From positions 128,665 to 192,664 of the forward strand of contig JAGWKL010000002.1 of the NCBI GenBank assembly GCA_028865345.1: DNA of 64,000 nucleotides, written 5' to 3'. This stretch comes from Candidatus Omnitrophota bacterium. GTDB taxonomy: Bacteria; Omnitrophota; Gorgyraeia; Zapsychrales; Fredricksoniimonadaceae. Below are positions 8,536 through 63,517 of this stretch, piece by piece. Position numbers and translations under genes: made by a program. The notes under the pieces were generated by a model. That model had not been told where the DNA came from, searched no databases, and worked only from the letters and a program-made list of their open reading frames with translations. How positions within the stretch are numbered: position 1 is the stretch's first letter; the number at the start of each line of letters is the position of its first letter.

Positions 8536-8539
8536 GGTT

Positions 8540-13779: not shown

Positions 13780-13781
13780 AA

Positions 13782-18527: not shown

Positions 18528-18530
18528 TAT

Positions 18531-19043: not shown

Positions 19044-19066
19044 ACATTATCCTTTCATTACAAAAA

Positions 19067-33411: not shown

Positions 33412-35892
33412 TTAATGATTGAAGGGAACCTTCCAAATGTCCTTGGCGTATTCACGGATGGTACGGTCAGACGAAAAAAAACCGGAATGGGCCACATTGA
33501 TGATGGACTTCTTCACCCATTCCTCCTGATCCATATAGGACTTGGAAACCACGTCCTGCATTTGGCAATAAGAATCAAAGTCCGCGCACACCAAATAAGG
33601 ATCGTACCCCGTCAATGAGTCAATGATGGGGGCAAAAAGATTGGCGTCATGGGGGCTGAAAAAGCCGCTGCGGATGAGCTTGAAAATTTCCTGGAGCATC
33701 GGGCTTTTGTCAATGAAGCCCGAGGGATGATACCCATGGGCTTTAAGATTTTGGACCTCATCGCTCTTCAGGCCGAAAATAAAGATGCTCTCCTCCCCCA
33801 CCATTTTAGCTATCTCGATATTGGCCCCATCGAGAGTGCCGATGGTAAGAGCCCCGTTCATCATGAATTTCATGTTGCCGGTGCCCGAGGCCTCGGTGCC
33901 GGCCGTGGAGATCTGTTCGGAAAGATCGCTGGCGGGAAAAACCTTTTCCGCCAGGGACACCCGGTAATTTTCCAGAAATACCAGCTTGATCTTGTCCTTC
34001 ACGCTTTTGTCATGGTTGATGATCTCTGCGATGCTGTTGATGAATTTGATCGTCAATTTGGCCATATAATACGCCGGCGCCGCCTTCCCCCCCACCATAA
34101 AAGTACGCGGATAAATAAACTCTTTGGGGCTATGTTTGAGCCGCAGGTACTGGGCAATGATATAAAAAGCAAAAAGCATCTGGCGTTTGTATTCATGGAT
34201 ACGTTTGATCTGGACGTCGAATATAGATTCCGGATCAAGGCTCAAATCCATGCTGGATTTTATATAACGCGCCAGCGCCTGTTTGTTCTGTCTTTTAATG
34301 TCCGTCCATTTTTCACGGAACGCTTTGTTGTTCTTGAAACTATCGATCTTTTCCAGCCTGTTCAAGTCCATGATCCAGCCGTCGCCCACCTTGTCTATAA
34401 GCAGGTCGGCCAGGCGCGGATTGGCTTTCAGGAGCCACCGGCGCTGGGTGATCCCGTTGGTTTTGTTGTTGAACTTGCCGGGATAGAACTCGTAAAAATC
34501 CTTGAATAAATTCGCCTTAAGAAGGTCCGAGTGCAACTGAGAGACCCCGTTGACGGAAAAACTCCCCACGATGGCCAGATAAGCCATGCGGATCCTTTTA
34601 GTGTCCCCTTCCTCGATCAGCGACATGCGGCGCAGGCGGTCCGTGTCTCCGGGATAACGCAATGCCACCTCTTTAAGGAAATGGGCGTTGATCTCATAGA
34701 TGATCTGCATGTGCCGGGGCAAAAGCCTCTCGAAGAGTTCGACGCTCCAGCATTCCAGGGCTTCGGGCATCAGGGTATGGTTGGTATAGGCAAAGACCCT
34801 GGTGGTGATGTCCCATGCCGCTTCAAAACCAAAATCGTATTCATCGATCAAAAGCCGCATCAGTTCGGCGATCGCCAGAGTGGGATGAGTATCATTCAAC
34901 TGGATGACCACCTTTTTGGGCAGGTCCCTGAGGTCCGGATTCTCCGCCTTGCAGCGCCTGATGATGTCGGCAATGGATGCCGCTGTAAAAAAATATTCCT
35001 GCTTGAGCCTCAGTTCCTTGCCCTGGCTGCTGGCATCGGAAGGATAAAGGACCTTGGAAATATTTTCAGAGAGGATTTTCTTATATACGGCATGCTCATA
35101 GTCTCCGGATTTAAAATAATCGAAATCAAACTCCTCGGTCCCCCGCGCCGACCAAAGGCGCAGGGTATTGACCACGTCGTTTCTATAGCCCACGACGGGC
35201 AGGTCGTAAGGGACAGCCAGGACATCCTGCGTATTGATCCATTTTTGTTTAGGATTGCCCTTGTTATCGTGTTCCGTCACGCTGTTGCCATAATAACAGA
35301 CTTTGACCGTATATTCCGGACGGGCGAATTCCCAGGGATTTCCGGCGCGCAGCCATTCATCCGGAAGCTCCATCTGAAAACCGTTCTTGACCTTTTGATT
35401 GAATATCCCGTATTCATAACGGATCCCGTAGCCGTGCGCCGGTATGCCCAGGCTTGCCATCGAATCCAAAAAACACGCGGCCAGACGTCCCAGGCCGCCA
35501 TTGCCTAAGCCGGCGTCGATTTCCTGGCCCCTGACCTCTTCCAGATCCAACCCCAACTCATCCATGGCTTCGGCGACCTGCTTCTCTATGCCTAAGCTGT
35601 ACATATTATTACCCATCAGGCGGCCTATCAAAAATTCCATGGATAAATAGTAGACCCGGCGGGCGTTCTTTTTATGATAGCTCTGCTGGGTCTTGATCCA
35701 CCGCTCCACAATGCGTTCCCTTACAGCCAGGGAAAGGGCCAGAAAATTATCGTGCATCGTGGCGGTATATTGGTCTTTGGAAAGGGTGTATTCACGGTTC
35801 ATCTGAAAGGACAGCTTTATAGCATCCTTGGTCATTTCCTTACCGGAAACAAACCACTCAGCTTCTTTTTTAATACCGGTCTCTTGAGCCAT
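33412..35892 (-). CDS. glgP: Glycogen/alpha-glucan phosphorylase
   Basis: EASGTGNMKFMMNG PLP-lysine motif. 826 aa. AAGGAG RBS. Confidence 0.95.
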   Translation of the reverse strand: MAQETGIKKEAEWFVSGKEMTKDAIKLSFQMNREYTLSKDQYTATMHDNFLALSLAVRERIVERWIKTQQSYHKKNARRVYYLSMEFLIGRLMGNNMYSLGIEKQVAEAMDELGLDLEEVRGQEIDAGLGNGGLGRLAACFLDSMASLGIPAHGYGIRYEYGIFNQKVKNGFQMELPDEWLRAGNPWEFARPEYTVKVCYYGNSVTEHDNKGNPKQKWINTQDVLAVPYDLPVVGYRNDVVNTLRLWSARGTEEFDFDYFKSGDYEHAVYKKILSENISKVLYPSDASSQGKELRLKQEYFFTAASIADIIRRCKAENPDLRDLPKKVVIQLNDTHPTLAIAELMRLLIDEYDFGFEAAWDITTRVFAYTNHTLMPEALECWSVELFERLLPRHMQIIYEINAHFLKEVALRYPGDTDRLRRMSLIEEGDTKRIRMAYLAIVGSFSVNGVSQLHSDLLKANLFKDFYEFYPGKFNNKTNGITQRRWLLKANPRLADLLIDKVGDGWIMDLNRLEKIDSFKNNKAFREKWTDIKRQNKQALARYIKSSMDLSLDPESIFDVQIKRIHEYKRQMLFAFYIIAQYLRLKHSPKEFIYPRTFMVGGKAAPAYYMAKLTIKFINSIAEIINHDKSVKDKIKLVFLENYRVSLAEKVFPASDLSEQISTAGTEASGTGNMKFMMNGALTIGTLDGANIEIAKMVGEESIFIFGLKSDEVQNLKAHGYHPSGFIDKSPMLQEIFKLIRSGFFSPHDANLFAPIIDSLTGYDPYLVCADFDSYCQMQDVVSKSYMDQEEWVKKSIINVAHSGFFSSDRTIREYAKDIWKVPFNH

Positions 35893-36079: not shown

Positions 36080-36454
36080 TCATTTCTGGTGCGTATACAC
36101 AATCAATTGCCCTGTGAATCTCAACAATGCATCGCCGTAATAATAGTAACGGTAAGACATGGTCTTGGCATTGATAATGGCATCAGCCCCTTTATGCCTG
36201 GCGATTTTCTGCGCCTGACTGGTTAGCATCGCGGGAGTTACCCCATCACTGGCAAGGCCCTCAACGGAAACCTTACCGATCACATAATAAGGACGGACGG
36301 TTCCCATGGTTTGAGATGCCGGGTAAACATCAACGGTGTAATATTTGTCCTTGGGAGCAAACTGCTGATATGTATAACTGACATAACTCGAACTGGTAGC
36401 GCACCCTGCCAAAACCAAGAAAGCCAAGCCTAAGATTAATAATTTCGTTTTCAT
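36080..36454 (-). CDS. BhsA/YdgH (DUF1471)-like lipoprotein with Tyr-rich C-terminus
   Basis: Lipobox LAGC. Pattern YxVIGKVSVEG...DGVTPAML...KGADAIIN typical of the YdgH/BhsA fold. Paralog of 57826..58281. Confidence 0.6.
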   Translation of the reverse strand: MKTKLLILGLAFLVLAGCATSSSYVSYTYQQFAPKDKYYTVDVYPASQTMGTVRPYYVIGKVSVEGLASDGVTPAMLTSQAQKIARHKGADAIINAKTMSYRYYYYGDALLRFTGQLIVYTHQK

Positions 36455-36460: not shown

Positions 36461-36994
36461 TTATTTCCCGTACATTGTTTCAAGCTGGGACACTTTAGGG
36501 AACCGGGCATAAAATTCACCCTGAGGCCCTACAAAGCCGCTGCCTGACTTTTTGAGAACGACCGGCGTATATCCCCCCTTGCCGTTGGGAACATTGACGG
36601 TGATTGTATTATCCGAAGCCTGCGGCGCCTCTGCAGCTTGAGCAGGCGCACCGGCAGGTGTTGCCACGACCTGGTAACCATACGGGCCATACGTATAATA
36701 CACGCCGTTATTGACATAATATGTAACTCCGTTGATGACAACCGGTTGAAAGGCCGGAGATTCAACCGCATAGGCAGCAGGATAGCTAGCAACAGGATAG
36801 TAATAAGGAGCATAATAGGGGCCATAATAAGGATAATCGTCATAATCGTAGCCGTAATAATAAGGAGAGGACCAGCCATAACTAAAAGAAACATAGGAGT
36901 GCCTATGCCAATATGCATCAGAAGTTGTTGGCTTGACGATACATAAGCCAAAGAAGAACATGAAGACAAGCAAAATTTTCAATGTCATTTTCAT
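36461..36994 (-). CDS. Secreted Tyr-rich low-complexity protein with conserved ~50-aa C-terminal domain
   Basis: Signal peptide, then a YYYGYDYDDYPYYGPYY region. The C-terminus TITVNVPNGKGGYTPVVLKKSGSGFVGPQGEFY...QLETMYGK is about 60 % identical to the C-terminus of 43959..44405. The ATG start at M20 has a GGAGG RBS. Confidence 0.65.
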   Translation of the reverse strand: MKMTLKILLVFMFFFGLCIVKPTTSDAYWHRHSYVSFSYGWSSPYYYGYDYDDYPYYGPYYAPYYYPVASYPAAYAVESPAFQPVVINGVTYYVNNGVYYTYGPYGYQVVATPAGAPAQAAEAPQASDNTITVNVPNGKGGYTPVVLKKSGSGFVGPQGEFYARFPKVSQLETMYGK

Positions 36995-37129
36995 AACCGC
37001 CTCCAGCGAAAGAGCCCCCAAACTACATAGACGTGATTTTAATACTACCACAATAAATCGTCAAGTTTTTGTCCCCAACCGCTTCTTAGACAGCAAAAAT
37101 GATCAAAAAGTTCCATTTGAAAAGGCTTT

Positions 37130-37774
37130 TCATTCAGCTTTCCTTAAAATCAATTTTCGGCTCGCCAGGTCCAAGGTAAAATGAAATTTGCTTAAGAATG
37201 ACATGCCTAACAGGCCATCCCTGATTTCCTTATTATCTTCAAGTAAAACGACAGCAGGAACATCCCGGGCCTGCATGTCCCCCAACTTCACGCTGTCCAA
37301 CGACACTGCCGCGGCCTTATATTTGCCGTTAAGTACTTCCACATACCCTATTTGAGACCGGCTCAGATCAAGGCCCAGTTGGCGGGCAAACGGCCGGCTC
37401 AATAAAATCACCGGAGAACCCGTATCCACAACCAGGGAAGCATGGATTTTACCGTTAATGAATGCCTCCGCCGCCAGATGCCCCTGGGCATCGGGACTAA
37501 GGGGAATTACAATTCCCTCGATGTCACGGCGCTTCTGTTCCTCCTCCATGTTGGTATCATCGCTCAACTGTTCCTTGGCCTCCAGGATCTTTGAAAAAAC
37601 ACCCGAAGCTTCAGCCTGGGCCAGCGCCTGGCGGTCTGACTTGATGATATCACTTTCTTCATTGGCCATGGACCTGGAACACAAAAACAGACCAACCACT
37701 AGCAGCAAAACCCCTCCCCGCAACAACTGGGCATTACGAAACCGAAGCAAGCCCCGCTCAGGCCTATCGCCCAT
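37130..37774 (-). CDS. Membrane-anchored retropepsin-like (clan AA) aspartic protease
   Basis: N-terminal TM segment. Catalytic LVVDTGSPVILLS (DTG) motif and a C-terminal fold like the TIGR02281-type family. Its start lies 8 nt after the vWA stop. Confidence 0.75.
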   Translation of the reverse strand: MGDRPERGLLRFRNAQLLRGGVLLLVVGLFLCSRSMANEESDIIKSDRQALAQAEASGVFSKILEAKEQLSDDTNMEEEQKRRDIEGIVIPLSPDAQGHLAAEAFINGKIHASLVVDTGSPVILLSRPFARQLGLDLSRSQIGYVEVLNGKYKAAAVSLDSVKLGDMQARDVPAVVLLEDNKEIRDGLLGMSFLSKFHFTLDLASRKLILRKAE

Positions 37775-39491
37775 GACTTTTGCCTTTCTGGCTTTCTTTA
37801 AACGCAACTTTGGGGGCCGCTAAAGGATGCGAAGGTTCATTCTCGCTGAAAGAATAGGGAGTGATGATATGGAACTGCCCGCAGATTTTATGAATGGCAT
37901 CAATCAAGGCCCCATTGTCCTGATCGTATTTCAATTCACTGATCAAATAGTACACCTTATGGAACGCCCAGTCCCGTGCGATATCTTTACCGCCCAACGG
38001 CGCATTCTTAAGGGAGCCGCTGACAATGAACTCTTTATTATCATCGGCCGTGTCTCCCCTGATTTGAACGGCAAACTGATCTTCATTAGTGTATTTGCCG
38101 TAAATTACGAATTGCGACCCTTTAAAAAAATCCGGCATGGTCCGGGGAAAAATTTCCCGTTCATTCAGACCGCTGACATAATAGCGCACGTTCAACAAAA
38201 GCGGGTCTTTGATCTCGTCGTACAATCCGGCCAGATCCCGGCCCATAAAATACTGCCGGCCCACAACCGTTGACCAACCCCGGTTTTTAAAAGCAATAAA
38301 ATCCAGCATATAAGGATCCACGGCTGCGCCGCCGCCAAAAGTAAAAATACTGACCTTGTTATGATTGATACGGGAAATCTCGTTTATGACATGCCGGTCA
38401 TTCACAAGACCGGCAGTAGGAATGCCGTCGCTGATCAAAACCCTGTAGGACGGCACAAAAGGATGCGGCAACGTGACGCTTGTGCGCAGGGCGTCATAAA
38501 TGTCGGTCGTGGACCATGATTGCAGGCTGTGAAGAAAATCAACAGCCTTCCTGATATTGCCGGCGTCAACTTTAAGGGAAACAGGACTAAACGGTATGGA
38601 TCTATTGTTAAAAGCAAGGATATTAAAACGGTCATCGGGATTAAGGTGATGCAAGCTGTAGGCGATCCCCTCTTCCACCTGGGTCAAACGCGGCATTCCG
38701 ATGCTGCCTGAGGCGTCCACCAGGAAAATGATCTCCTTGGGGATGACGGGAAAATTAATGGTGGCATCCTTGACCTTTACAACGAGCTTGAAATATTTTT
38801 GCCCTGAAGGGGACTGGTACCTGAAGAGCTGATAAGTCAGTGCCGTACCCAAATCGGTGAGCCTGGATTTAGGCGCCTGGCCCGTGGGGCTTCTTTTCAT
38901 CATCTGGAATTCATTGTGCATATTGGCGGATCTACGGGACGTGACCAGGGCCGCCTTGGCCGGAAAAGAGCTCTTATCAAGAAAATTCCTGGAGATGTCC
39001 TCACCGGCAATAAGCACCGGCGAACCGGAGGCAAAGTTCTCCGTCGGCACTTCACCCAATTCAACCAGGTTCTCCCTCAGCGAACGGCGTACCCGTCTGG
39101 TGGTGACGATATCATTGAAATCCGATTTTCTTAAGGTCTGCGCTTGCTTGACCGATGAAGGGATGAGCGCCTGCTTTCCTTTCTGAATGGATGTCTCAAT
39201 ATTGTTCTTCACCGTTTCTTCGGATTCTATGGCCGGCTTGCTGATCAGATTTTCCAGAAAAGGATTGTCGGGTTTAGGTGATTTGCGCAAAGTCTCGGTG
39301 GCGAATTTGACCTTCGGGGTGCCCATCTGTTCTTCTTTGGCGATCGTGACATGAAAAAACATTTCCGGTTTTTCGGGGAACTCAACAGCAGGCAGCATTT
39401 TGGCAAAATAACTCCATATTAAAAACCCCGCGTGGAGGGAAAGGGAAATCCCAAGAGCGATCAATATCCTTCGCTGGACAATAACACTCAT
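37764..39491 (-). CDS. Membrane-anchored vWA-domain protein
   Basis: N-terminal TM segment. vWA MIDAS residues (FLVDASGSIG ... STTDIYDAL). The start ATG overlaps the TPR gene stop as ATGA. Confidence 0.8.
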   Translation of the reverse strand: MSVIVQRRILIALGISLSLHAGFLIWSYFAKMLPAVEFPEKPEMFFHVTIAKEEQMGTPKVKFATETLRKSPKPDNPFLENLISKPAIESEETVKNNIETSIQKGKQALIPSSVKQAQTLRKSDFNDIVTTRRVRRSLRENLVELGEVPTENFASGSPVLIAGEDISRNFLDKSSFPAKAALVTSRRSANMHNEFQMMKRSPTGQAPKSRLTDLGTALTYQLFRYQSPSGQKYFKLVVKVKDATINFPVIPKEIIFLVDASGSIGMPRLTQVEEGIAYSLHHLNPDDRFNILAFNNRSIPFSPVSLKVDAGNIRKAVDFLHSLQSWSTTDIYDALRTSVTLPHPFVPSYRVLISDGIPTAGLVNDRHVINEISRINHNKVSIFTFGGGAAVDPYMLDFIAFKNRGWSTVVGRQYFMGRDLAGLYDEIKDPLLLNVRYYVSGLNEREIFPRTMPDFFKGSQFVIYGKYTNEDQFAVQIRGDTADDNKEFIVSGSLKNAPLGGKDIARDWAFHKVYYLISELKYDQDNGALIDAIHKICGQFHIITPYSFSENEPSHPLAAPKVAFKESQKGKSHGR

Positions 39492-41848
39492 TTTAAAAGA
39501 CCGATCCTTTGCCGGGCATAGGACGCAGCCCTGCTGTTTTTATATTTATCCAGTATCTCCTCATAGGCTTTCAGGGCGTCGGGACGGCGCTTTTGGCGCT
39601 CAAAAATCCCGGCTGCCCTTAATAGACTCTCGGGGCAGTAATAATCGTCATCGTAAACCGTGGCCACCAGGAGATAATATTTGGCCGCCTCGTCCAGTTT
39701 CCCCTGGGCGCGATCGGCATTGGCCATCTCAAAGGCGGCATGCGCCGTGACTGTATAATCATCGGGATTTTCGTCCAAAGCCTTTTGGAATTCCTTTTCG
39801 GCCTCATCATACCTTTGCTGGGTCTCCAGGCATAAACCGTGGCCGATATGGGCGCTTCCGGTAAAGGCATTCTTAACACTTGAAGCTTCGACCGGATCGT
39901 AATACTTGGCCGCCTCATCGCAGCGCCCCAGCCCTCTCAAGGCTTCGGCTTTAAAATAATAAATTTCCGTCATGTCCAAAGGACCCGCTCCCCGGCTTCC
40001 AAGGCCGGAAAAACGTTTTTCCGCGTCGGCCGCCACACGAAGGACATCATCATATTTTTGTTCCTTCAGATATTGATTGCAAACCCACACATAGGTCGCC
40101 AGCTGCAGGTCATTAGGGCCCGGCAGGTTCATCAGGCGGTCAAAAAAATTCCTCGCCTGGTCGAAATTTTTCATGCCCAGATAAATGATCGCCATATTCT
40201 TGACGGCAGCCGGATAAAATTTTCCTCCTTCCTGGTTTTGGTCCACGTGCGCGTAGGCGGCCAGCGCCTGGCTGCTGTTGCCTGAAAGCTGAAGGTTATA
40301 TCCCAACAAGAAATACGCGGTATTTGCTTTTTGAGGCGAAGCTGAAGCCAAATACCCCTGCAGCAATTTGACCGCCTCGGCAGGCTGGTTGTCCTTGGCC
40401 AGGCTGTCCGCCAGGATAAACAAAACATTGCTATATTGCCGGGCCTTGGGAAATGTTTTTAAATATTCCCGGGCCCGATCGATCGCATCCCGGATATCGC
40501 CTGTCCGAACATCCATCATGATCGCGTTATATAATGCTTCCCCCTTTAAATCAGGCTGGCTTTCAAGATCATAATATTTCAAAAATAAAGCCTGGGCCTC
40601 TTTCAGGCGGCCCGCTCCCTCGCGGCAATGGGCCTCGCCCAATAGCGCCGCCTTATTAAAACGGGAACCAGGGAAATTCTGATAAACATTTTCAAAAAAA
40701 TTAAATGCTTTATCATATTCCCCCAGGCCGAAACAGCATTGGGCTTTCAGGAAAAATGTCTCGTCGGCATTCCCGGTATCGGCGGAAGAATACGCGTTCA
40801 ACAATGCCAGGGCGTCCTTATAATCTTTGTTACTGATAAAAATACCGGCTTTCTTGATAAAAATCCGGGCAGTCTCCCATGGTTTTAATCCCGGGAAGGC
40901 CAGCATGCGGTCCAGAAGTTTATTGGCCCGGTCATATTGTTTTAATTCAATATAGGCCATGACCGCCGCCAGGTGGACGTTAAAGTAAGATTCATCGTCC
41001 TTGATCCGGGACGCATATTTATGGTACTCGTCGAGCAATTGACCGTACTGCCCCAGATTGAAATAAGCCAAAAGCAGGTTGGCCAAGGCATCCTCATTGA
41101 GCCCCAGGGCCGGATACCCTTTGATCACCCGGTTGAATTCCTTGATGGCGCCGTCATATTGACCCGACAAAAACAGGACTGCGGCGATCCTATAATGCAA
41201 TTGGCCTTTAAGGGAGTCGTTCTCTGCCAGCGCCAAAGATTTGCTATACGCATCGAGGGCCTCCTGATCATGCCCCCCCTGAACCTCTATCTTGCCTATT
41301 TCCCTGAACGCATCGGCGGTATAGCCGGATGCCCCCTGGACTGCTGAAGCCTTTTGGAAAAAAGTAAGGGCTGAAGACCTATCTCCCTTATCTAAATAAG
41401 CGCGGGCCGTATAAAAATCAAACGATTGCAAAATCTGCCCCTTTAACTGTTTTCGATCAACGGACTCAAGCTCTTTTAAAGCCTCATCATATTGCTTTTG
41501 CTCGATGTCGATCTGCCCTAAACGCAAGATACTCACCGGTAATTTTCCGGAATGAGGGTAAAGTTGATTAAACTGCCTGAAAGCATCAACGGCCTTGTTA
41601 AATTCCCGGGACAAGAAATAACCCTCGCCCAGGGAAAGGTAGGCGTCCTGCAAAGACGGGCTGTGGGGATTTTCGGCAATGAACTTCCGGTATTGTGTAA
41701 TGGCCATCCCGTACATGCCGCGCGCAAGCAAACCCTGGGCAAAATCCAGCTCTTCCGCTTCCTGCACGCTGTCCTGGGCGTGCACAGGCACAGGGAACGC
41801 GCAACACACTGTGAAAATACCTGCGATAACAACGGTCCTGAAATTCAT
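39488..41848 (-). CDS. Large secreted TPR-repeat protein
   Basis: Signal peptide, then more than 15 TPR-like repeats over 786 aa. Its start lies 1 nt after the exbD stop. Confidence 0.8.
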   Translation of the reverse strand: MNFRTVVIAGIFTVCCAFPVPVHAQDSVQEAEELDFAQGLLARGMYGMAITQYRKFIAENPHSPSLQDAYLSLGEGYFLSREFNKAVDAFRQFNQLYPHSGKLPVSILRLGQIDIEQKQYDEALKELESVDRKQLKGQILQSFDFYTARAYLDKGDRSSALTFFQKASAVQGASGYTADAFREIGKIEVQGGHDQEALDAYSKSLALAENDSLKGQLHYRIAAVLFLSGQYDGAIKEFNRVIKGYPALGLNEDALANLLLAYFNLGQYGQLLDEYHKYASRIKDDESYFNVHLAAVMAYIELKQYDRANKLLDRMLAFPGLKPWETARIFIKKAGIFISNKDYKDALALLNAYSSADTGNADETFFLKAQCCFGLGEYDKAFNFFENVYQNFPGSRFNKAALLGEAHCREGAGRLKEAQALFLKYYDLESQPDLKGEALYNAIMMDVRTGDIRDAIDRAREYLKTFPKARQYSNVLFILADSLAKDNQPAEAVKLLQGYLASASPQKANTAYFLLGYNLQLSGNSSQALAAYAHVDQNQEGGKFYPAAVKNMAIIYLGMKNFDQARNFFDRLMNLPGPNDLQLATYVWVCNQYLKEQKYDDVLRVAADAEKRFSGLGSRGAGPLDMTEIYYFKAEALRGLGRCDEAAKYYDPVEASSVKNAFTGSAHIGHGLCLETQQRYDEAEKEFQKALDENPDDYTVTAHAAFEMANADRAQGKLDEAAKYYLLVATVYDDDYYCPESLLRAAGIFERQKRRPDALKAYEEILDKYKNSRAASYARQRIGLLK

Positions 41849-41849
41849 T

Positions 41850-42272
41850 TTAAGGGTTCTCGTCCTTGATCGCTGAAAAAGAAATGTCCGTCAAATGGGA
41901 ATACCCGCAGGCATCCAGGGCCTGGATCACGTATTTATGGTAGGTCAGTGCGTCCGCGCGGATAATGACCTGCTGGTTCGGGAATAATTTGGACACATGG
42001 GCCAGCATAACCGTCAGTCCGTCCGGAGTATATTGCTTCTGGTTGACGATAAAACGGCCGTCCCTGGTGATATTGATGACGATCTTGCCGGCGCTTTGGG
42101 CGGACTGGACCGCTGTTTTGGATTTGGGAAGCGTCATATTGACCTGCGCTTCCATCTGGTTATAAACGGCAATGACCATAAAAAACATCAGGGCCCAGAA
42201 AGCAATGTCCACCAGAGGGGCCAGTTGGACGATCGGCCTTTGCCGTTGATATTCAGAGACGTCGAATTTCAT
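41850..42272 (-). CDS. exbD: ExbD/TolR biopolymer transport protein
   Basis: 140 aa. ExbD N-terminal pattern with one TM (LAPLVDIAFWALMFFMV). Confidence 0.85.
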   Translation of the reverse strand: MKFDVSEYQRQRPIVQLAPLVDIAFWALMFFMVIAVYNQMEAQVNMTLPKSKTAVQSAQSAGKIVINITRDGRFIVNQKQYTPDGLTVMLAHVSKLFPNQQVIIRADALTYHKYVIQALDACGYSHLTDISFSAIKDENP

Positions 42273-42293
42273 AAGCTTCTCTCCTCGTAATAT

Positions 42294-43040
42294 TTATCGG
42301 CCGTGGATCTTCTTGATGATGTCCGAGCTGTAAATCTCCACCATATTGGTGATCTGCTGGACATGGCCGCGGAAATAGGAATACGCCATCAACGCCGGGA
42401 TGGCGACGATGAGCCCGGAGGCCGTACAGACCATGGCCTTAGAGATGCCCGCAGCCAAAAGGGTCGTTTTAAGGCTGGCTGACTGCAAAGGCACCGCACG
42501 GAAGGCCTGGATCAATCCCAGCACAGTTCCCAACAGGCCCAAAAGGGGCGCCACAGCGACGATGTCGGAAAGATAACTGATGTTTTGCCAGAGATTGGTC
42601 AATTCAACGCGGGCGGTGTTCTCCATGGCTTCGCGGGCCAAATCATCATGGTGCTGCTTTCGTTCAAGGCCGGCCAGGACAATCTTGGCAATGATGGTGC
42701 TGTTTTCCTGGCGGCAGATGGTTTGGGCGCCGTTAAAATCCCTGCTGTTGAGCTTGTGCATCACCTCATCATATAGCCCGCGCGGGACAAGCTTATTGAC
42801 ATTAAGCATCATGACGTCATAAACGATAATGGCCACGGCCGCAACCGAGAGGAAACCTATGCCGATCATGGTTAAGCCTCCGGCCTTCAGCGTCTGCCAC
42901 AGCGTCATGTCCCCGGGCATATTAGCCCCTCCTGCGCCGGATCCGGACACTTGAGCATAGGCACAATGATGTCCGTTAAGTAAAAACAAAAGAACGAACA
43001 TCCCCAACATCCAAACCGGCATATTTTTCGCATTGATCAT
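42294..43040 (-). CDS. exbB: MotA/TolQ/ExbB proton-channel protein
   Basis: 248 aa with three TM helices. C-terminal TolQ/ExbB-family core. Confidence 0.85.
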   Translation of the reverse strand: MINAKNMPVWMLGMFVLLFLLNGHHCAYAQVSGSGAGGANMPGDMTLWQTLKAGGLTMIGIGFLSVAAVAIIVYDVMMLNVNKLVPRGLYDEVMHKLNSRDFNGAQTICRQENSTIIAKIVLAGLERKQHHDDLAREAMENTARVELTNLWQNISYLSDIVAVAPLLGLLGTVLGLIQAFRAVPLQSASLKTTLLAAGISKAMVCTASGLIVAIPALMAYSYFRGHVQQITNMVEIYSSDIIKKIHGR

Positions 43041-43163
43041 GTGTCAACCCCCTCGTGATTTAAAAAATTCTACATTTTTAATTTTAACTTAAGAGACCCG
43101 CCAATACAAGAAGCAAGCAATGCAAATGTTGATTTATAAATTTTTAAATATAAAATACATCTC

Positions 43164-43853
43164 ATGCGAAAGTACTTGTTTATTTTATGTCTTTTGGTGC
43201 CGGTCTTGTGCCTGGAAGCCCGGGCCCAAGAGCAAACGCCCGAGCAGCTTTTACAAACCGTGCGCACCTCCCTGGTGGAAGTAAGGGCCGTAGCCACCAA
43301 GACCATCAGAGAAAATAACGGTGATGAAATAAGAGGAACCTACCATGCCACAGGTTCCGGCGTCATCCTTGACACCTATGGAAACATCGTCACCAATACC
43401 CATATCATCGCCAACGCCCAACGCATCTATGTCGGCCTCAGCGACGGCACCGTGCTCGAGGCAAAACGTGTATATTCCAGCGACGCTGACTTCAGCTTTA
43501 TCAAGGTCGATCCGCCCTACCCGCTTGATCCCATCAGCTGGGCTGATTCTTCACAAGCCGGGACAGGCACACCCATCATTGCGCTGACCAATAGCGACAA
43601 CGGCCAAGAGCACATCCTCGGCGGTGAAATCATCAAGCTTATCAATGGCGTTGATTCAGGCAGTGTGGAAATGTTTGAATTAAACCTTCCCCTTGTCCCC
43701 GGGGACAGCGGCGGCCCGCTTCTCGACAACGAAGGGCATTTGTTAGGACTGATCATGGGCAGGAAAACAAGCCAAGACGATAAAAGTTATGCCATAGCGT
43801 CCAATAAAATCCATCAAGAATACATGAACTACCAGCAAAATCTACCCAATTAA
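43164..43853 (+). CDS. Secreted trypsin-like (S1) serine protease, no PDZ domain
   Basis: Signal peptide. Catalytic His (TNTHIIANA) and Ser (GDSGGPL) motifs. Divergent from exbB. Confidence 0.8.
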   Translation: MRKYLFILCLLVPVLCLEARAQEQTPEQLLQTVRTSLVEVRAVATKTIRENNGDEIRGTYHATGSGVILDTYGNIVTNTHIIANAQRIYVGLSDGTVLEAKRVYSSDADFSFIKVDPPYPLDPISWADSSQAGTGTPIIALTNSDNGQEHILGGEIIKLINGVDSGSVEMFELNLPLVPGDSGGPLLDNEGHLLGLIMGRKTSQDDKSYAIASNKIHQEYMNYQQNLPN

Positions 43854-43958
43854 ATAATATTCACAACTGGATTTAAAATGAAATACCAAAAGGCTTGAGT
43901 TGTACTTCCCTGCTATGCCGAACAGTTATCTCATCGCAAACGCTTTTAAACGGACAAT

Positions 43959-44405
43959 TTATCTGCCGTACATGGCCTGCAGCTGTTCGGTTGAAGGGAT
44001 CTGGTCGTAATATTCGCCCTGCGGGCCTATATAACCGTTCCCCGATCTTTTGAGCACCACCGCCGTATATCCTCCGGTGGAATTAGGGATATTGACCGTG
44101 ACCGTGTCCCCGGAATAGGTGATGTTGGTCACAGGAGCCGGTTGGCTGACAACTACCGGCGCCGGCTGTTGGACAACAGGTTTTTGGATTTGAGAACCCA
44201 CCGCGGCCCCGGTGACGGCGCCCAACGCGCCTCCGATCAAAGCCCCTGCCCCTGTGTCATGGCTTTGATGGCCTATAATACCCCCGGCCAGCATGCCCAG
44301 AGCGCCTCCGGCGGCGGCACCTTCGCCTTCATTATTATAGGGATTGCAGCCGGCAATAAAAGCGGCGAAAACAAACACTGTCAGGACATAAAAACATTTT
44401 TTCAT
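43959..44405 (-). CDS. Glycine-zipper lipoprotein with conserved ~50-aa C-terminal domain (paralogous to 36461..36994 C-terminus)
   Basis: Lipobox FIAGC. Gly-zipper region (GALGMLAGGIIG...GALIGGALGAVTGAAVG). The C-terminus TVTVNIPNSTGGYTAVVLKRSGNGYIGPQGEYY...QLQAMYGR matches the other protein. GGGGAG RBS before MKKCF. Confidence 0.65.
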   Translation of the reverse strand: MKKCFYVLTVFVFAAFIAGCNPYNNEGEGAAAGGALGMLAGGIIGHQSHDTGAGALIGGALGAVTGAAVGSQIQKPVVQQPAPVVVSQPAPVTNITYSGDTVTVNIPNSTGGYTAVVLKRSGNGYIGPQGEYYDQIPSTEQLQAMYGR

Positions 44406-44477
44406 TTTAAATCTCCCCAAAAACAGACAATCTAAATTATAGCAAACGCTGAACTTATTTCATCTAAAATCCGCTTC

Positions 44478-46020: not shown

Positions 46021-46332
46021 ATGTTAGGCGGCGCGTTCCTTAACAGGCTTGACAAGTTCGGCATGTGGATCCTGATGGCCATGGTCCTCGGTTTCGTCAT
46101 GACCGGCTACGGCATGACCAAACACATCATGGACCCCGTGTTGGCCAAATACATCCATACCCAATTGCTGCCTCTACCGCTGCTCATATTCTTTTGCATC
46201 CATGTGATCAAAGGCGTCCGTAATCAATTTAAAAAATGGAAGATCTTCGATAATGACCGCACCCTGGACATCTACGCCTATGCCCTGGTGCTGTCCGTCA
46301 CCGCCATCCTGATCTGGCTGTTTTTCCGTTGA
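46021..46332 (+). CDS. Small 3-TM membrane protein
   Basis: GGAGG RBS. Begins 14 nt after the previous stop. Its stop overlaps the radical SAM start. Confidence 0.5.
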   Translation: MLGGAFLNRLDKFGMWILMAMVLGFVMTGYGMTKHIMDPVLAKYIHTQLLPLPLLIFFCIHVIKGVRNQFKKWKIFDNDRTLDIYAYALVLSVTAILIWLFFR

Positions 46333-47459
46333 CCATGGGTCCCATCGTCAAAAAAATTCTCGCCGGCCTGTTTTTACTCTTGATCGTCGGATCATCCGTA
46401 CTGGTGGCCATCCAGCGCCAGCGGACCATCGGCTTAGAAGAAGACCCTTCCAAATTCCATGAAGCCCTGTATTACAGCAAACTTTACGGCGGTCTTGTCC
46501 AATGCAAGCTTTGCCCCAATCTATGCATTCTGGCGCCCGGCGAATACGGCATCTGCAAGGCGCGCAAAAATATCAACGGAAAGCTCTATTCCCTGGTTTA
46601 TGGCAAGATCGCTGCCGCCCACCTTGACCCCATTGAAAAAAAACCGTTTTTTCATGTGCTGCCGGGGGCGCAGGCTTTCTCCATCGCGACCACCGGCTGC
46701 AACATCCAATGCCTTTTTTGCCAGAACTGGGAGATCTCACAGGCCTTTCCCTTTGATGTCCCCACCCGGTCCGCCAGCCCCAAACAGGTGGTGCAAGAGG
46801 CCCTGGCCAGCGGGGCCCGCGCCATTGCCTTTACTTACAGCGAGCCCGTCATTTCTTATGAATATGTGCTGGACATTGCGAAGCTGGCCAAACAAGCGGG
46901 CTTGAAAACACTCATGGTCAGCAACGGCTACATAGAGCAAAAACCGCTTAAACGCCTCCTTAAATACATCGACGCTTTTAAAGTGGATTTCAAAGGCTTT
47001 GATGAAAAGTTCTATACAAGGCTCACCGCCGGGCACTTGCAACCGGTCCTGGAAACCATGAAAACCATCCATCAAAGCGGCGTCTGGCTTGAGATCGTCA
47101 CGTTGCTTGTCACGGGACAAAACGACAGCGACAGGCAGATCCGGGGACTGGCGGACTGGATCAAAACCAACCTGGGAGATGATGTGCCTTTGCATTTCTC
47201 GCGCTTCTACCCCCAATACAAACTGCTCAATGTGCCGCCCACCCCGCCGGAAACCGTGATCCGGGCCCGTGACATCGCCATGCAGGAAGGGTTGAAATAC
47301 GTTTATACGGGAAACATCGACTACCCTCCGGGCGAAATCACCTTCTGTCCAGAATCAGGTGAAAAAGTCATCGTGCGCCGGGGCATGTTCACCATTTATA
47401 ACGGCCTGGTCAACGGGGCTTGCAGCGATGGAGAAAAAATCCCGGGGATTTGGGATTAA
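46329..47459 (+). CDS. AmmeMemoRadiSam-type radical SAM enzyme (PFL-activase-like)
   Basis: N-terminal Cys cluster (CKLCPNLC...GICKARK), then GCNIQCLFCQNW (CxxxCxxC). Confidence 0.85.
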   Translation: MTMGPIVKKILAGLFLLLIVGSSVLVAIQRQRTIGLEEDPSKFHEALYYSKLYGGLVQCKLCPNLCILAPGEYGICKARKNINGKLYSLVYGKIAAAHLDPIEKKPFFHVLPGAQAFSIATTGCNIQCLFCQNWEISQAFPFDVPTRSASPKQVVQEALASGARAIAFTYSEPVISYEYVLDIAKLAKQAGLKTLMVSNGYIEQKPLKRLLKYIDAFKVDFKGFDEKFYTRLTAGHLQPVLETMKTIHQSGVWLEIVTLLVTGQNDSDRQIRGLADWIKTNLGDDVPLHFSRFYPQYKLLNVPPTPPETVIRARDIAMQEGLKYVYTGNIDYPPGEITFCPESGEKVIVRRGMFTIYNGLVNGACSDGEKIPGIWD

Positions 47460-49668
47460 AACCCCGATGCATGCTGATAACTGCAGCTAAAGCGACATTG
47501 ATCGCCATCAACAGCAAAAGCGTTTTGTATATGCCATAGGCCGGGATCATAAATACGCTTATACCCAAAGCCCCTGCACACGAACCAAAAAGATCAGCCG
47601 CGTAAATGCTTCCCAAAAGCGCGCGGTCGTTATCATTTTGCCCGGCAAGAAACAAAGTACTGGCATAAGAAAATTCCAAGCCGGTAAAAACACCTATCCC
47701 TGCCCCCAAAATGATCCAGACCTCAGGCAAAGGAAGATAGCCATAATGGCCAGCCGCCCGCATCAACCAAAACCAGATCAGAAAATAGGCGCCCATGCCT
47801 GCATGGAGTTTGGCGATCGAAGTAAACCCGCCAGAGATTTTCTTATTGCCCCCCCAAAAGCCGGGGGACAAACCCCAAAAAGTGCCCGCCGCTGCTGCCA
47901 GCATAAACGTAGCGATGATCCAGGCGATTTTATAATAAAGATCGCCGTAAAAGACCTGAAACCCATAAATCACGATGACCTCGGCGGCCATTAAAGAAAA
48001 ACCTCCCACAGCCATGACGGCAATGAGAAGGGGCCGGTTGGATGACGATGGACCGCGGGCCCAAAGGAACGGCAAGATCAGCCCTAGGGCCCCGATCAAA
48101 ACGATGAAATAATTCGTCCGCATGAGGCGGGCGAGCAAAGCGGCGAGACCCTGATGAAAAATACTGAACCAATAGATCAGATTGTAAAGATACCCCCGCG
48201 GATGCAGATCAGTATTGATCCGGGCCGTCCTGTCTGCCTTAAAAAAATCCCCGGCCGCGGCAATACGGTCTGTGGTGTACCGGTAAACAATGGCCGGCGC
48301 GGAAAGGAAATACGTAAGGATGCCCCTGGCTTTGAGCCTGCGGATGATCACCCGCGGGTCATGGGGCAAAGCCTGTTGCGAAGCTAAGATAAAAAGCGTA
48401 TCTCCCGGAAGTAGGACGACCGAACGAAAATTGTGTTTGATCGTCCTGTATATGCAGGAGCCCAAATGCCCCAAGGTGGCCGGTATGGTATCTGCTGCAA
48501 ATTTCAAATGCGTTGCCATGACTCCGCCGGCTTTTAAATGCCCCCGAACCTCTCTGAAAAAAGCATCGGTAAAATAGCGGTTGAGCAGGGCCGTCGACGG
48601 ATTGGGCAGATTGATGATGACCACGTCCAGGTCCGATGGGAGGTTCTCAAGCGAACGGCGCGGGTCGCCTTTGACCAAAACAACCTGCCCCTTTCTCAAA
48701 ATACCGTCCAAGGAGGGCGAGAGTGCCCGGGCAAGGCCGGTCATGGCTGGATCCAATTGGGCGTAATAGACCCTTTCAGGCTTATATTTTAATATCTCCT
48801 GCAGAGCGCCACTGAAACCGGCATCTATCAAAAGTACTTTTTGGGGGCCGGCATCGGAAAGCATGGGCAAATGGACAAGATATTCATTGAACGCCCTGTC
48901 CTTATCCGTGCCCACGGGCATGCCGCTTTCATAAAAATTGAGCTGGTCCCCGGTGCGCGTCACGGCAAGATTTCCGTGCACTGAATTCTTTGTTTCCACC
49001 AACTGTTCATTGGGAAACCTTAGGGCCGCAGTCCGGAAATTCAAAGGCCCCGAAAATAAAAAACAGGCCAAACACCAAAAGGCCGCTGCCATGGCAGCTA
49101 TAAAAAATTGTTTTTTAGCGGCGACACCGCTCCACAGGAGTCCGGCAAAGACCGCCGCCAAATTCAAGGCCGCAACGACACCACAGGTCCTAAACGCGTC
49201 GGCGAACACCAACCCGTAACTGAACACCAACCCGCCCAGGACAAAACCCAGGGCTTCGTAAAGATAGGCCTTGCGCTGGTCGTCCCATTCGGACACGGCG
49301 GAAAATTGCACCCCTAAACACAGGCACAAAGGGGCAATTGCCAAAAAAGAGACCACGATCGTCGGTAAAAAATCAGGAACCTGCCCGGCGGCGGCAAAAA
49401 AACTTTTACTTAAACGCGCGGCCAGGACCGTCAGCGGGAACAATACGCAAAGCGCCAAATGGCAGATGAGAACAAGCGCAAGGCCGCGGCAGGCTTTAGG
49501 CAGGAATTTGATGGCGAGGCTGCCTGCCGCCACCCAAAAAAGCCAGGCAAACAGGATCCAGCCGATGAAAAATTCATTACCCCAAAAACTGACGATCATT
49601 TCCCGGATCATAACGATCTGGGAAACCAAAGAAGAAAAACCCAGAACAAGAACTGAAAGGAAGAACAT
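47410..49668 (-). CDS. Polytopic membrane protein with C-terminal spermidine-synthase (PABS)-like domain
   Basis: About 12 TM helices at the N-terminus. The C-terminal region VLLIDAGFSGALQEILKY resembles aminopropyltransferase/SAM-MTase folds. Its 3' end overlaps the radical SAM gene convergently by 50 nt. Confidence 0.7.
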   Translation of the reverse strand: MFFLSVLVLGFSSLVSQIVMIREMIVSFWGNEFFIGWILFAWLFWVAAGSLAIKFLPKACRGLALVLICHLALCVLFPLTVLAARLSKSFFAAAGQVPDFLPTIVVSFLAIAPLCLCLGVQFSAVSEWDDQRKAYLYEALGFVLGGLVFSYGLVFADAFRTCGVVAALNLAAVFAGLLWSGVAAKKQFFIAAMAAAFWCLACFLFSGPLNFRTAALRFPNEQLVETKNSVHGNLAVTRTGDQLNFYESGMPVGTDKDRAFNEYLVHLPMLSDAGPQKVLLIDAGFSGALQEILKYKPERVYYAQLDPAMTGLARALSPSLDGILRKGQVVLVKGDPRRSLENLPSDLDVVIINLPNPSTALLNRYFTDAFFREVRGHLKAGGVMATHLKFAADTIPATLGHLGSCIYRTIKHNFRSVVLLPGDTLFILASQQALPHDPRVIIRRLKARGILTYFLSAPAIVYRYTTDRIAAAGDFFKADRTARINTDLHPRGYLYNLIYWFSIFHQGLAALLARLMRTNYFIVLIGALGLILPFLWARGPSSSNRPLLIAVMAVGGFSLMAAEVIVIYGFQVFYGDLYYKIAWIIATFMLAAAAGTFWGLSPGFWGGNKKISGGFTSIAKLHAGMGAYFLIWFWLMRAAGHYGYLPLPEVWIILGAGIGVFTGLEFSYASTLFLAGQNDNDRALLGSIYAADLFGSCAGALGISVFMIPAYGIYKTLLLLMAINVALAAVISMHRGFNPKSPGFFLHRCKPR

Positions 49669-49693: not shown

Positions 49694-51292
49694 CTACATT
49701 TCCCGGGCTTCGACTGTCCCCGAATGTCCCTTGTATACGGGGATCATGAGGACAAAAGGAACACAGGTAAAAAACATAAACATCAAAAACATAGAAATAT
49801 CATTGTACGCCATCATCTGGGCCTGCTGGGTCACCAGCCTGTTGATTAAGTCCATGGCCGCCTGCTTGGCTGTGCCTAAAGACATGCCCTGCCGGTACAG
49901 AAACGCCGTTGCCTGATGGAAAAACCTCTCAAAATTCGGATTAAAAGGATTGATATGCTCCGCCAGATAGACGTGATGGACCTGGGAATTCCTCTCGAAC
50001 AAGGTTGCCATGACCGCGTATCCAATATTGCCGCCGACCTGCTGGAAAAGATTAAACAGCCCTGATGCGGATGTCATAAGTTCCTTTTCCACGGAACTCA
50101 AAGCCACCGTCGATAAGGAAATAAAAATGAACGGCAGCCCGCTGCCCATCAAAAGAAGGGACGGCACGATATTACCCTGTCCCGCCGTGGTTGCCAGATG
50201 GGCCAACTGGAAGTAAGAAACGTTCACGACCGCAATGCCGTATAAAATCAATGCCCGCGGGTCTACAAGATTGTATAGCTTCCCGACCAAAGGCAGGACG
50301 CATATCAAGGCGATGGCCCTTGGCATCAGCACCAGGCCGGACTGATACGCCGGATAATTTAAAAGCTGCTGGGTAAACTGAGGTAAAATAAACGAAGTGC
50401 CGTACAGTGCTATCCCGAACAAAAGAATGACCACGACCCCCATGCGAAACTGGGCATTTTTAAAAATCCTTAAATTTACCACCGGCTCTTCGACGGACAA
50501 TTCCCAGACCACCAGCGCCAAAAGTGTTATCACTGTGAAAACCGCGGTCCATGCGATCCAACTGGACTCAAACCAGTTTTCCTGCTGCCCCCTTTCCAGG
50601 AAGACCTGCAGGCCGGTCAGGCCAAGCGTCAGCAAAACGATACCTGCCACATCTATCCTCTTGACACCCCGTTGAAGATAGGGAGGGTCAAAGACAAAAA
50701 GGCTGACCAAAAGCATCCCCACGACACTCACAGGTATGTTGATATAAAAAATCCACTGCCAGCCGTACTGGTCCGTGAGCCAGCCCCCTAATACCGGGCC
50801 GACGGCAGGCGCCACCACCACCCCCATGGAAAAAATCGCCATGGCCATGCCCTGTTCATTTCTGGGAAAAGTCTCGCGCAGGATGGCCTGGGCCAAAGGC
50901 ACCAGGCTCCCTCCGCCCATGCCCTGCAGGACGCGGCAGGCGATCATCTCCGGAAAGGTATGCGACATGCCGGCCAGGATCGACCCCACGGTAAAAACGA
51001 CAAAGGAAAGCAAATAAAAATTTTTTCTGCCCAAAAGACGCACCCACCAGCCGGACATGGTCAGCATGATGACGGCGGCGATGCTGTAGCTCGTCGCCAC
51101 CCAGGTGATCGCGGAGAGGTTCTGGCCGAAGCTGCCCATCATATGGGGAAGGGCCACATTGACGACATTGACGTCCATGATCGCCATGAAGGCGCCGAGA
51201 ACGACCGAAACAGCTACGGCCCATTTATTGGGGCTGTATTGCGCCGGGGGCGCCTGCCCCCCGGCTTTTGGGGGCAAAGAGGAGGAATTCAT
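49694..51292 (-). CDS. emrB: MFS DHA2-family efflux transporter (EmrB/QacA-like)
   Basis: 532 aa with 14 predicted TM helices and DHA2 motifs. Confidence 0.85.
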   Translation of the reverse strand: MNSSSLPPKAGGQAPPAQYSPNKWAVAVSVVLGAFMAIMDVNVVNVALPHMMGSFGQNLSAITWVATSYSIAAVIMLTMSGWWVRLLGRKNFYLLSFVVFTVGSILAGMSHTFPEMIACRVLQGMGGGSLVPLAQAILRETFPRNEQGMAMAIFSMGVVVAPAVGPVLGGWLTDQYGWQWIFYINIPVSVVGMLLVSLFVFDPPYLQRGVKRIDVAGIVLLTLGLTGLQVFLERGQQENWFESSWIAWTAVFTVITLLALVVWELSVEEPVVNLRIFKNAQFRMGVVVILLFGIALYGTSFILPQFTQQLLNYPAYQSGLVLMPRAIALICVLPLVGKLYNLVDPRALILYGIAVVNVSYFQLAHLATTAGQGNIVPSLLLMGSGLPFIFISLSTVALSSVEKELMTSASGLFNLFQQVGGNIGYAVMATLFERNSQVHHVYLAEHINPFNPNFERFFHQATAFLYRQGMSLGTAKQAAMDLINRLVTQQAQMMAYNDISMFLMFMFFTCVPFVLMIPVYKGHSGTVEAREM

Positions 51293-52182: not shown

Positions 52183-52200
52183 AATGACCTCTCTGCTTTT

Positions 52201-61169: not shown

Positions 61170-61198
61170 AGGCTCCTCTCGGGTATGGGGGGATTGGT

Positions 61199-61222
61199 TG
61201 GCCTGTCCCCAGACTCGGGGAC
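61199..61222. repeat. REP-like palindromic element GCCTGTCCCCAGACTCGGGGAC (family copy b)
   Basis: Immediately abuts the stop codon of the pilin gene. 7-bp stem. No T-run. Confidence 0.55.
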
Positions 61223-62466: not shown

Positions 62467-62471
62467 AAGCA

Positions 62472-62930: not shown

Positions 62931-62999
62931 AAATATATATACCCCCCTATTTAAATTTATAACATACAAAAGAAGACAGGTCAAATATGGCTGCCAAAA

Positions 63000-63455: not shown

Positions 63456-63460
63456 ATCTT

Positions 63461-63499: not shown

Positions 63500-63517
63500 C
63501 AACACCAAACATCAACT

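Follow-up and report, generated by a model that had tools for sequence, protein, structure and literature searches.

The stretch analysed here, 64,000 nucleotides (nt) of contig JAGWKL010000002.1 from a Candidatus Omnitrophota bacterium (positions 128,665 to 192,664 of the contig; hereafter the window, meaning the whole stretch), carries a cluster of five minus-strand genes that spans positions 43040 down to 37130. These genes encode ExbB/TolQ-like and ExbD/TolR-like subunits of a putative proton-driven motor, a secreted tetratricopeptide repeat (TPR) protein, a membrane-anchored von Willebrand factor A (vWA) domain protein, and a retropepsin-like aspartic protease. A preliminary description of the same DNA had read the five genes together as an envelope machine that is energised by the proton-motive force and that sorts or processes secreted proteins sharing a C-terminal domain. 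The five open reading frames (ORFs) lie where that description had placed them and encode the domains it had named. Comparison with related loci divides the cluster differently: the conserved unit consists of four genes, the ExbB/TolQ-like, ExbD/TolR-like, TPR and anchored vWA genes, and not of five. Within this unit, the vWA protein probably serves as the force transducer of the motor, the role played by TonB and TolA in the Ton and Tol-Pal systems. The genes of the cluster and the parts of the vWA protein are as follows (aa, amino acids; pLDDT, predicted local distance difference test).

42294..43040, minus strand: ExbB/TolQ-like proton-channel subunit, 248 aa (PF01618 MotA_ExbB, 4.8e-31)
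41850..42272, minus strand: ExbD/TolR-like subunit, 140 aa (PF02472 ExbD, 1e-19)
39488..41848, minus strand: secreted TPR protein, 786 aa (many TPR families)
37764..39491, minus strand: anchored vWA protein, 575 aa, proposed force transducer (VWA_3/VWA/VWA_2)
39399..39485, minus strand: N-terminal transmembrane helix of the vWA protein, aa 3-31, with S16-x3-H20 (39432-39446), L24 and S27
39339..39359, minus strand: motor-box-like motif FFHVTIA of the vWA protein, aa 45-51 (from motif conservation and alignment)
38865..39395, minus strand: predicted disordered periplasmic linker of the vWA protein, aa 33-209 (pLDDT <50)
37848..38861, minus strand: globular head of the vWA protein, aa 211-548, with a beta element, the vWA fold, a beta-sandwich and helices
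38703-38717, minus strand: DxSxS of the metal ion-dependent adhesion site (MIDAS) in the vWA head
37130..37774, minus strand: secreted retropepsin-like aspartic protease, 214 aa from ATG 37774, with DTG at 37418-37426 (TIGR02281)

The genes are tightly spaced, with 21 nt between ExbB and ExbD, 1 nt between ExbD and the TPR gene, and a 4-nt overlap between the TPR and vWA genes, all three as described previously. The last junction, formerly given as 8 nt, had to be corrected. Read from its sole in-frame ATG (37774), the retropepsin gene has an overlap of 11 nt with the vWA stop; the alternative start, TTG 37750, which is the next in frame, would leave 13 nt after the vWA gene.

The ExbB protein has TolQ as its top NCBIfam match, scoring 90.5 against an equivalog cutoff of 221, and its closest solved relative is Escherichia coli TolQ (8odt, 8e-14). 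For ExbD, the top family match is TolR (50.1 against a cutoff of 127.3). Neither a search of ExbD against solved structures nor BLASTP against E. coli TolR gave a significant match, and its identity therefore rests on Pfam. Two threonines of ExbB, Thr172 (LLGTV) and Thr206 (TAxGL), are at least 90% conserved among 33 orthologues, as is the transmembrane Asp22 of ExbD (window 42207-42209) among 35. Judged from these conserved channel residues, the motor looks functional, and this part of the preliminary description, a machine energised by the proton-motive force, held up, with the four core genes collinear across the phylum. The TPR protein has repeats of the YbgF/CpoB type (181 bits), and its orthologues begin with a signal-peptide-like N-terminus, after which the motif E-x-LDFAQGLL is conserved.

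A protein with 100% identity to the vWA protein occurs in a Candidatus Omnitrophica metagenome-assembled genome (MAG), and the vWA protein has approximately 80 full-length orthologues, every named one of which belongs to Omnitrophica. The AlphaFold2 (AF2) model divides the protein into three parts: a helix at residues 3-31 with high pLDDT, a region without confident structure at residues 33-209, and a confidently modelled globular part at residues 211-548. Ser16 and His20 of the N-terminal helix are nearly invariant in an alignment of 14 orthologues, and they are the sole invariant columns among 20 diverse vWA N-termini with identities down to 11%; three very distant orthologues have AxxxH in place of SxxxH. 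In an alignment that includes the N-terminal sequences of TonB and TolA from E. coli (NC_000913.3), Ser16 and His20 fall on S16 and H20 of TonB and on S18 and H22 of TolA. Leu24 and Ser27 share a helical face with this anchor. At a fixed distance after H20, the motif F-x-[VIL]-[KRT] is conserved; it reads FHVTIA in the window and aligns with the motor-box strands ISVTMV of TonB and IDAVMV of TolA. The linker is poorly conserved and rich in E, S, K and P. In the head, all MIDAS residues (D259, S261, S263, T329, D330 and D355) are invariant in the 14 orthologues, and Foldseek found its best match in ITIH1 (6fpy, E=2e-22), with BatB (3ibs) at 6e-9. Because the protein combines a TonB/TolA-type helix, a predicted disordered linker of approximately 180 residues and a head with an intact MIDAS, we regard it as the probable force transducer of the motor. 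The preliminary description had noted the lack of a TonB-like partner and had cast the vWA protein as a scaffold or adaptor. The former is accurate in that Pfam detects no TonB_C domain in the vWA protein, but the protein itself carries the SxxxH anchor of the TonB/TolA type, so that it resembles the missing partner rather than a scaffold.

A distant vWA protein was seen at another locus (L049, 9308-11059). It is 29% identical to the window protein and has an SLALH helix and a Pro-rich linker. Its gene, on a high-GC contig of 2.16 Mb, has a Rho-like gene and a gene for a PEP-CTERM protein as neighbours. We did not accept it as an extension of the family because no recognisable motor genes lie nearby.

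The extent of the conserved unit was determined from 45 loci, collected with a pattern scan over one genome per species and all titled Omnitrophota or bearing evidently mislabelled bin names. Gene presence at each locus was assessed by tblastn with the window proteins, by all-against-all clustering of ORFs and by iterated hidden Markov model (HMM) searches. The vWA gene occurs in all 45 loci, the TPR gene in 40, each time between ExbD and vWA, ExbD in 34 and ExbB in 32, and the missing genes coincide with contig ends. The order and strand ExbB-ExbD-TPR-vWA are constant wherever the contig extends, while the identity of the vWA protein to that of the window ranges from 73% down to approximately 30%. 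Beyond this core, and with antisense shadow ORFs disregarded, no gene family is found in more than 14 loci. Diverged loci have unrelated housekeeping genes after vWA, which encode a nitroreductase or a TonB-dependent receptor and elsewhere a deaminase, a photolyase, an integrase, MsrA, a PP-loop ATPase or glycosyltransferases.

A system of this composition was described in 2025, and the suggestion of the preliminary description that the gene combination was new did not stand. Williams-Jones et al. (2025; PMC12204202, section 8) proposed a class of inner-membrane-tethered vWA force transducers in which an SHLS helix precedes a disordered stretch containing a motor box, a domain II of approximately 100 residues and a C-terminal domain of the vWA fold. 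The class, founded on a protein from Tichowtungia aerotolerans, is syntenic with TPR, tolQ-like and tolR-like genes, PVC bacteria of the class having a pair of tolR-like genes, and it was reported in Proteobacteria, Planctomycetes, Verrucomicrobia, Bacteroidetes and Rhodothermaeota (PMC12204202). The window cluster shares with this class the Ser and His of SHLS in a single N-terminal helix, a linker predicted to be disordered, in which a short motif may correspond to the motor box, a head of the vWA fold where TolA and TonB have their C-terminal domain, and the synteny with tolQ-like, tolR-like and uncharacterised TPR genes. On the grounds of architecture, motif and synteny, we therefore regard ExbB-ExbD-TPR-vWA as a probable member of the vWA force transducer class, and we give this reading, a proton motor tethered to a vWA head as the best explanation of the core, a probability of about 0.72. 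The class had been proposed from structure prediction alone, with no phenotype, ligand or role known. Omnitrophota are absent from the main text of PMC12204202; the module, present in diverse members of that largely uncultured phylum, would thus extend the class to one more phylum. Moreover, the invariant Ser and His of the anchor would lend independent comparative support to the idea that motors of the Ton/Tol type drive heads other than those of TonB and TolA.

Several observations weigh against this reading. A profile of the vWA N-terminus searched against solved structures retrieved neither TonB nor TolA, only a chance match to a light-harvesting protein (E=0.72), so the likeness of the anchor exists at the level of motif and alignment. 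The Leu/Ser half of SHLS is spaced otherwise, with S16-H20-L24-S27 here and S16-H20-L27-S31 in TonB, that is, +4 and +7 from the His instead of +7 and +11, a compression by about one helical turn that also sets the protein apart from the class. The motor-box-like motif is not predicted as a strand in the AF2 monomer. A single tolR-like gene is present where PVC bacteria of the class have a heterologous pair, and the gene order differs, since in the tolQ-tolR-TPR-vWA arrangement the TPR gene stands between motor and transducer. Finally, the retropepsin and vWA genes share 4 nt in at least five genomes (L005, L007, L009, L013 and L020) and 11 nt in the window, and the retropepsin gene follows a highly diverged vWA gene in L054, which leaves room for a functional link between protease and module in that lineage. 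Further differences from the class are the longer linker (approximately 180 residues against approximately 100), the head closest to ITIH1 with its extra beta-sandwich, and the retropepsin gene appended in one clade.

If the vWA protein is indeed the transducer, the Ton/Tol mechanism, as known from cryo-electron microscopy work summarised in PMC12204202, suggests how the module could operate. The ExbB/ExbD pair, assembled as ExbB5-ExbD2, would form a proton-driven motor on which the vWA helix could dock through its Ser16/His20 face, and the short conserved motif after the helix would be the likely contact to ExbD. The disordered linker of approximately 180 residues would cross the periplasm, and the head with its complete metal site could grip a carboxylate-bearing ligand, on which proton flow would then exert a pull. 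By analogy with CpoB and TolA, the TPR protein is likely a periplasmic adaptor or scaffold. The module could serve in adhesion or gliding, in tethering the outer membrane or in the handling of cargo.

The genes around the module, some of which had figured in the sorting model, comprise, besides the retropepsin, two secreted proteins with a shared C-terminal mini-domain, termed here TagY and TagG, a small lipoprotein and a trypsin-like protease, the last located where the preliminary description had noted one.

36461..36994, minus strand: TagY, with a signal peptide, a Tyr-rich DUF6515-like region and the C-terminal mini-domain (36464-36616)
36080..36454, minus strand: 124-aa lipoprotein, 6 nt after TagY
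43959..44405, minus strand: TagG, a Gly-zipper lipoprotein with the same C-terminal mini-domain (43962-44114)
43164..43853, plus strand: secreted trypsin-like (HtrA-core) protease, divergent from ExbB (Trypsin_2, 3e-20)

In a close clade, defined by vWA identities of approximately 55% or more, the whole neighbourhood is syntenic, from Pro_CA_2 and TagG out to GlgP and Fur, in the order Pro_CA_2, TagG, trypsin-like protease, module, retropepsin, TagY, lipoprotein, GlgP and Fur. Even within this clade, the trypsin-like protease gene was found at six loci, with 8.7 kb between it and the module in one case, and is absent in L009, L011, L012 and L013. The close clade is the only one in which tag genes adjoin the module; in a clade of 52% identity (L001 and L014) the distance is 5-9 kb, and there is none within 10 kb of the module in approximately 30 other, more diverged loci. 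The retropepsin, the trypsin-like protease, TagY, TagG and the small lipoprotein are thus lineage-specific neighbours. The label BhsA-like, formerly given to the lipoprotein, is unsupported, the protein having no Pfam match at E<=0.01.

The retropepsin itself passes the TIGR02281 cutoff (78.5 bits against 57.95), has its DTG at residues 117-119 and finds its nearest solved structure in Rickettsia ApRick (5c9b, 9e-9). Its N-terminus had been described as a membrane anchor but seems closer to a signal peptide that is cleaved off (SMA|NEE for the window protein, VYA|AEG for L035). DTG, an N-terminal export signal and the TIGR02281 match are shared with the bacterial retropepsins Rickettsia APRc/ApRick and Pseudomonas aeruginosa Rlo, neither APRc nor Rlo being reported beside an ExbBD-vWA module. 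Iterated HMM searches recovered the gene in nine of the 45 loci, every one in the close clade; one more, diverged locus, L054, has a retropepsin of 50% identity after a vWA gene of 29-45% identity, and a homologue of 40% identity occurs in L055 with no module nearby. Conservation of the protease with the operon, which the preliminary description had made a test of its model, was thus not found, the retropepsin being clade-restricted.

The junction between vWA and retropepsin is itself variable among close relatives. A HipB/HipA toxin-antitoxin pair is inserted after vWA in L008 (11962-13254), and the two genes are separated by an acyltransferase gene in L010 (11949-13175) and by two unknown ORFs in L012 (7676-9492). 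In L017, vWA is followed by the gene of a 2,567-aa GLUG-repeat protein that has an M26 peptidase N-terminal region (12060-19763), and retropepsin, TagY, lipoprotein, GlgP and Fur form a block approximately 45 kb off on the same contig (L053), with the retropepsin still adjoining TagY. The same block occurs in L062, where the module is absent within 7.5 kb upstream. L011 has both tag proteins and no retropepsin, its TagY beginning 72 nt after vWA. The spot directly after vWA is a hotspot of insertion in these close relatives (L008, L010, L012 and L017). The retropepsin is, accordingly, an optional, lineage-restricted neighbour and not a defining part of the system.

The protease could nevertheless act as a true accessory of the vWA transducer in that lineage, cutting the Glu/Lys-rich linker, the TPR protein or proteins of the TagY type. 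The overlaps of 4 and 11 nt with vWA would be explained in this way, as would the adjacency kept in L054. Secreted bacterial retropepsins are site-specific processing enzymes, APRc being the nearest solved one, and the Rlo retropepsins of P. aeruginosa, which have signal peptides, cut Glu-rich sequences (PMC12239564). We consider an accessory role unlikely on balance, as the protease is absent in most lineages and dispensable within its own clade (L011, L017/L053), and as L054, which lacks TagY, retains GlgP nearby, so that its adjacency may be residual synteny.

Literature searches on TIGR02281, on DUF6515 and on Omnitrophota with ExbB or von Willebrand returned nothing relevant. A 173-aa secreted protein encoded at another locus (L067, 4634-5155) repeats a motif of the retropepsin N-terminal linker, …DRKALAEAKASGD…ILAAKEKLSDD…. 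We rejected this locus as a case of linkage between retropepsin and tag, because only the N-terminal linker motif is present and a protease domain is not.

As the preliminary description had recognised, the two flanking secreted proteins share a C-terminal domain of about 50 aa and differ in their N-terminal parts. The last 51 aa of TagY and TagG are 59% identical (BLASTP E=1e-21), and the preceding parts are unrelated, Tyr-rich with a weak DUF6515 match (9e-7) in TagY and Gly-zipper_Omp (1e-7) in TagG. These are the only two copies of the mini-domain in the 64-kb window. The mini-domain, with the consensus …TINVPNxxGGYTxVxLKRSGxGYxGPQGEFYxxxPxxxQLxxMYGK, matches no Pfam model and no known structure, and when modelled alone it is predicted to fold confidently into three strands and one helix (pLDDT 92). 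Because a word-indexed search with the tag profile gave short, mostly mis-called ORFs inside longer genes, the survey of architectures was redone exhaustively, and the exhaustive profile search yielded 1,061 representative clusters at E<=1e-3, 750 of them at E<=1e-10. As a by-product, the analysis thus revealed a large family, of more than 1,000 clusters, whose members are small extracytoplasmic domains.

Most members are small proteins with a single mini-domain at the extreme C-terminus, and of 119 sequences that contain the core motif, 96 terminate 22 residues past GPQGE. Tandem arrays of two to six copies occur in the secreted proteins P0299, P0300 and P0302, P0315 has N-terminal copies, and P0427 has a copy after a region that resembles an outer-membrane barrel, as judged by eye. 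A 312-aa protein of L067 (2844-3782), encoded two genes before the 173-aa protein mentioned above, fuses a DUF6515-like region, a Gly-zipper and a C-terminal mini-domain. The family reaches beyond the phylum of the module: a member of the P0300 cluster is annotated from a Planctomycetaceae MAG, and at the tag loci L051 and L052, whose housekeeping genes cluster at 90% identity with proteins of Chitinivibrionales MAGs, no ExbB-vWA module lies within 10 kb. A scan of metagenomes found at least 514 tag-encoding stretches. From these, 80 loci closest to TagY, hence biased to the window's own clade, were considered; among the 33 loci of at least 8 kb, six carry ExbB or vWA and 27 carry neither. One of these contigs, L083 (16.3 kb), has five mini-domain copies and no match to ExbB, vWA or retropepsin. 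The recurrent partner of the tag genes in the metagenome loci is the small lipoprotein, in many contexts. The TagY-lipoprotein pair was found at nine genome loci and also on metagenome contigs with neither module nor retropepsin (L074, L080, L086, L087, L089, L099, L103 and L108).

These distributions bear on the sorting model of the preliminary description, in which ExbBD with a TPR/vWA scaffold and the retropepsin would form a sorting or processing machine and the 51-aa tag would be removed by the protease. The model draws on the retropepsin overlapping or abutting vWA in the window and in at least seven close relatives with tag genes on both flanks, on the extreme C-terminal position of the mini-domain in most single-copy proteins, and on the adjacency to TagY that the retropepsin keeps after relocation in L053 and L062. 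Like the type IX secretion system C-terminal domain, PEP-CTERM/exosortase and LPXTG/sortase signals, the mini-domain usually stands at the end of small secreted proteins whose N-terminal parts are unrelated. Unlike these signals, it is a compact, autonomously folding domain that consists of three strands and one helix and lacks a transmembrane segment, it may be repeated up to six times in tandem or stand at the N-terminus, and no peptidase or secretion genes are consistently linked to it. Moreover, the retropepsin and tag genes are missing from approximately 30 more diverged module loci even by iterated HMM search, L011 keeps both tag proteins without the protease, and four close-clade genomes have an insertion or relocation at the vWA/protease junction. 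Since the positions and the spread of the mini-domain and its mostly module-free loci do not fit a cleaved sorting signal served by the operon, we consider this model very improbable; the sorting or processing idea is not supported, and the neighbours are better seen as local add-ons to the four-gene core. The attractive reading of the cluster as a new sorting system is thereby removed.

A different connection between the mini-domain and the vWA transducer can be imagined, and we mention it as a long shot. The Glu of the collagen motif GFOGER coordinates the metal in integrin I-domains. The mini-domain has an invariant GPQGE in a predicted loop, whose Glu might similarly coordinate the MIDAS metal, so that the Tyr-rich DUF6515-type and Gly-zipper tag proteins would be gripped, pulled or repositioned by the vWA transducer, with the retropepsin recruited, in one Omnitrophota family, to release or mature them. 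If true, the vWA force transducer class would gain its first candidate substrate.

The cluster can also be compared with the classical envelope systems. Like Ton and Tol-Pal it has a motor, homologous to theirs, in which the Thr and Asp residues of the channel are conserved, and a third component with an SxxxH helix, a candidate motor-box motif and a linker predicted to span the periplasm, while its effector head is a metal-dependent vWA domain. The TPR partner recalls CpoB of Tol-Pal but is three times the size. No TonB_C, TolA domain III or Plug/TonB-dependent receptor was found in the cluster, and neither TolB nor Pal/OmpA among its five genes and the flanking ones. In L003, the genome of a distant member of Omnitrophota, a canonical set of TonB-dependent receptor, ExbB, ExbD and TonB, followed by an ABC uptake system, lies directly downstream of the module (11974-15557), so that two paralogous motors stand side by side. 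Bat operons likewise combine membrane-anchored vWA and TPR proteins in the envelope, but they have MoxR, DUF58 and BatD and no ExbB/ExbD, and the cluster is without MoxR, DUF58, the BatA N-terminal domain and BatD. Furthermore, the window has its own complete canonical Bat operon (~7846-15664, minus strand), approximately 22 kb from the cluster, which includes, in addition to the genes below, a 167-aa ORF between the DUF58 and BatA genes and, after BatD, a 229-aa ORF that belongs to no family.

14669-15664, minus strand: MoxR AAA ATPase
13782-14672, minus strand: DUF58 protein
12251-13255, minus strand: BatA
11247-12332, minus strand: second vWA protein
10375-11319, minus strand: TPR protein
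8540-10381, minus strand: BatD

That the cluster is a variant of a classical Tol-Pal, Ton or Bat system, as the TolQ/TolR top matches, the YbgF/CpoB-type repeats, the joint vWA and TPR genes and the weak BatB fold match might suggest, is hardly credible given scores far under the TolQ and TolR equivalog cutoffs, the missing Tol, Ton and Bat components, the separate canonical Ton set in L003 and the complete Bat operon in the window. Because it coexists with these canonical systems, the vWA module appears to have a separate function and not to replace either of them.

No Rfam families or tRNA genes were found in the 64-kb window, and scans for promoters and terminators gave site counts no higher than expected from shuffled sequence, so that individual sites are weak hints only. 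One such promoter-like site (37064-37036) lies within the 135-nt gap upstream of TagY, in a region whose site counts are not above chance. Housekeeping blocks occupy 3338-6880, 15780-18527, 33412-35892, 49694-53574 and 54489-55727; this context comprises pyruvate:ferredoxin oxidoreductase, phosphoenolpyruvate carboxylase, glycogen phosphorylase beside Fur, an ammonium transporter, and a major facilitator superfamily transporter accompanied by an outer-membrane efflux protein. A 1,081-aa ORF at 19067-22312 (minus strand) matches no Pfam family at E<=1e-5. At 47410-49668 (minus strand), a 752-aa polytopic membrane protein with an internal spermidine-synthase-like domain is encoded, and a radical-SAM gene (46329-47459, plus strand) converges with it. 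Towards the end of the window (region 60426-63988, minus strand), three consecutive genes with N-terminal methylation motifs of the type IV pilin-like kind (62472-62984, 63000-63455 and 63518-63988) lie near a papain-family C1 peptidase gene (60426-61169).

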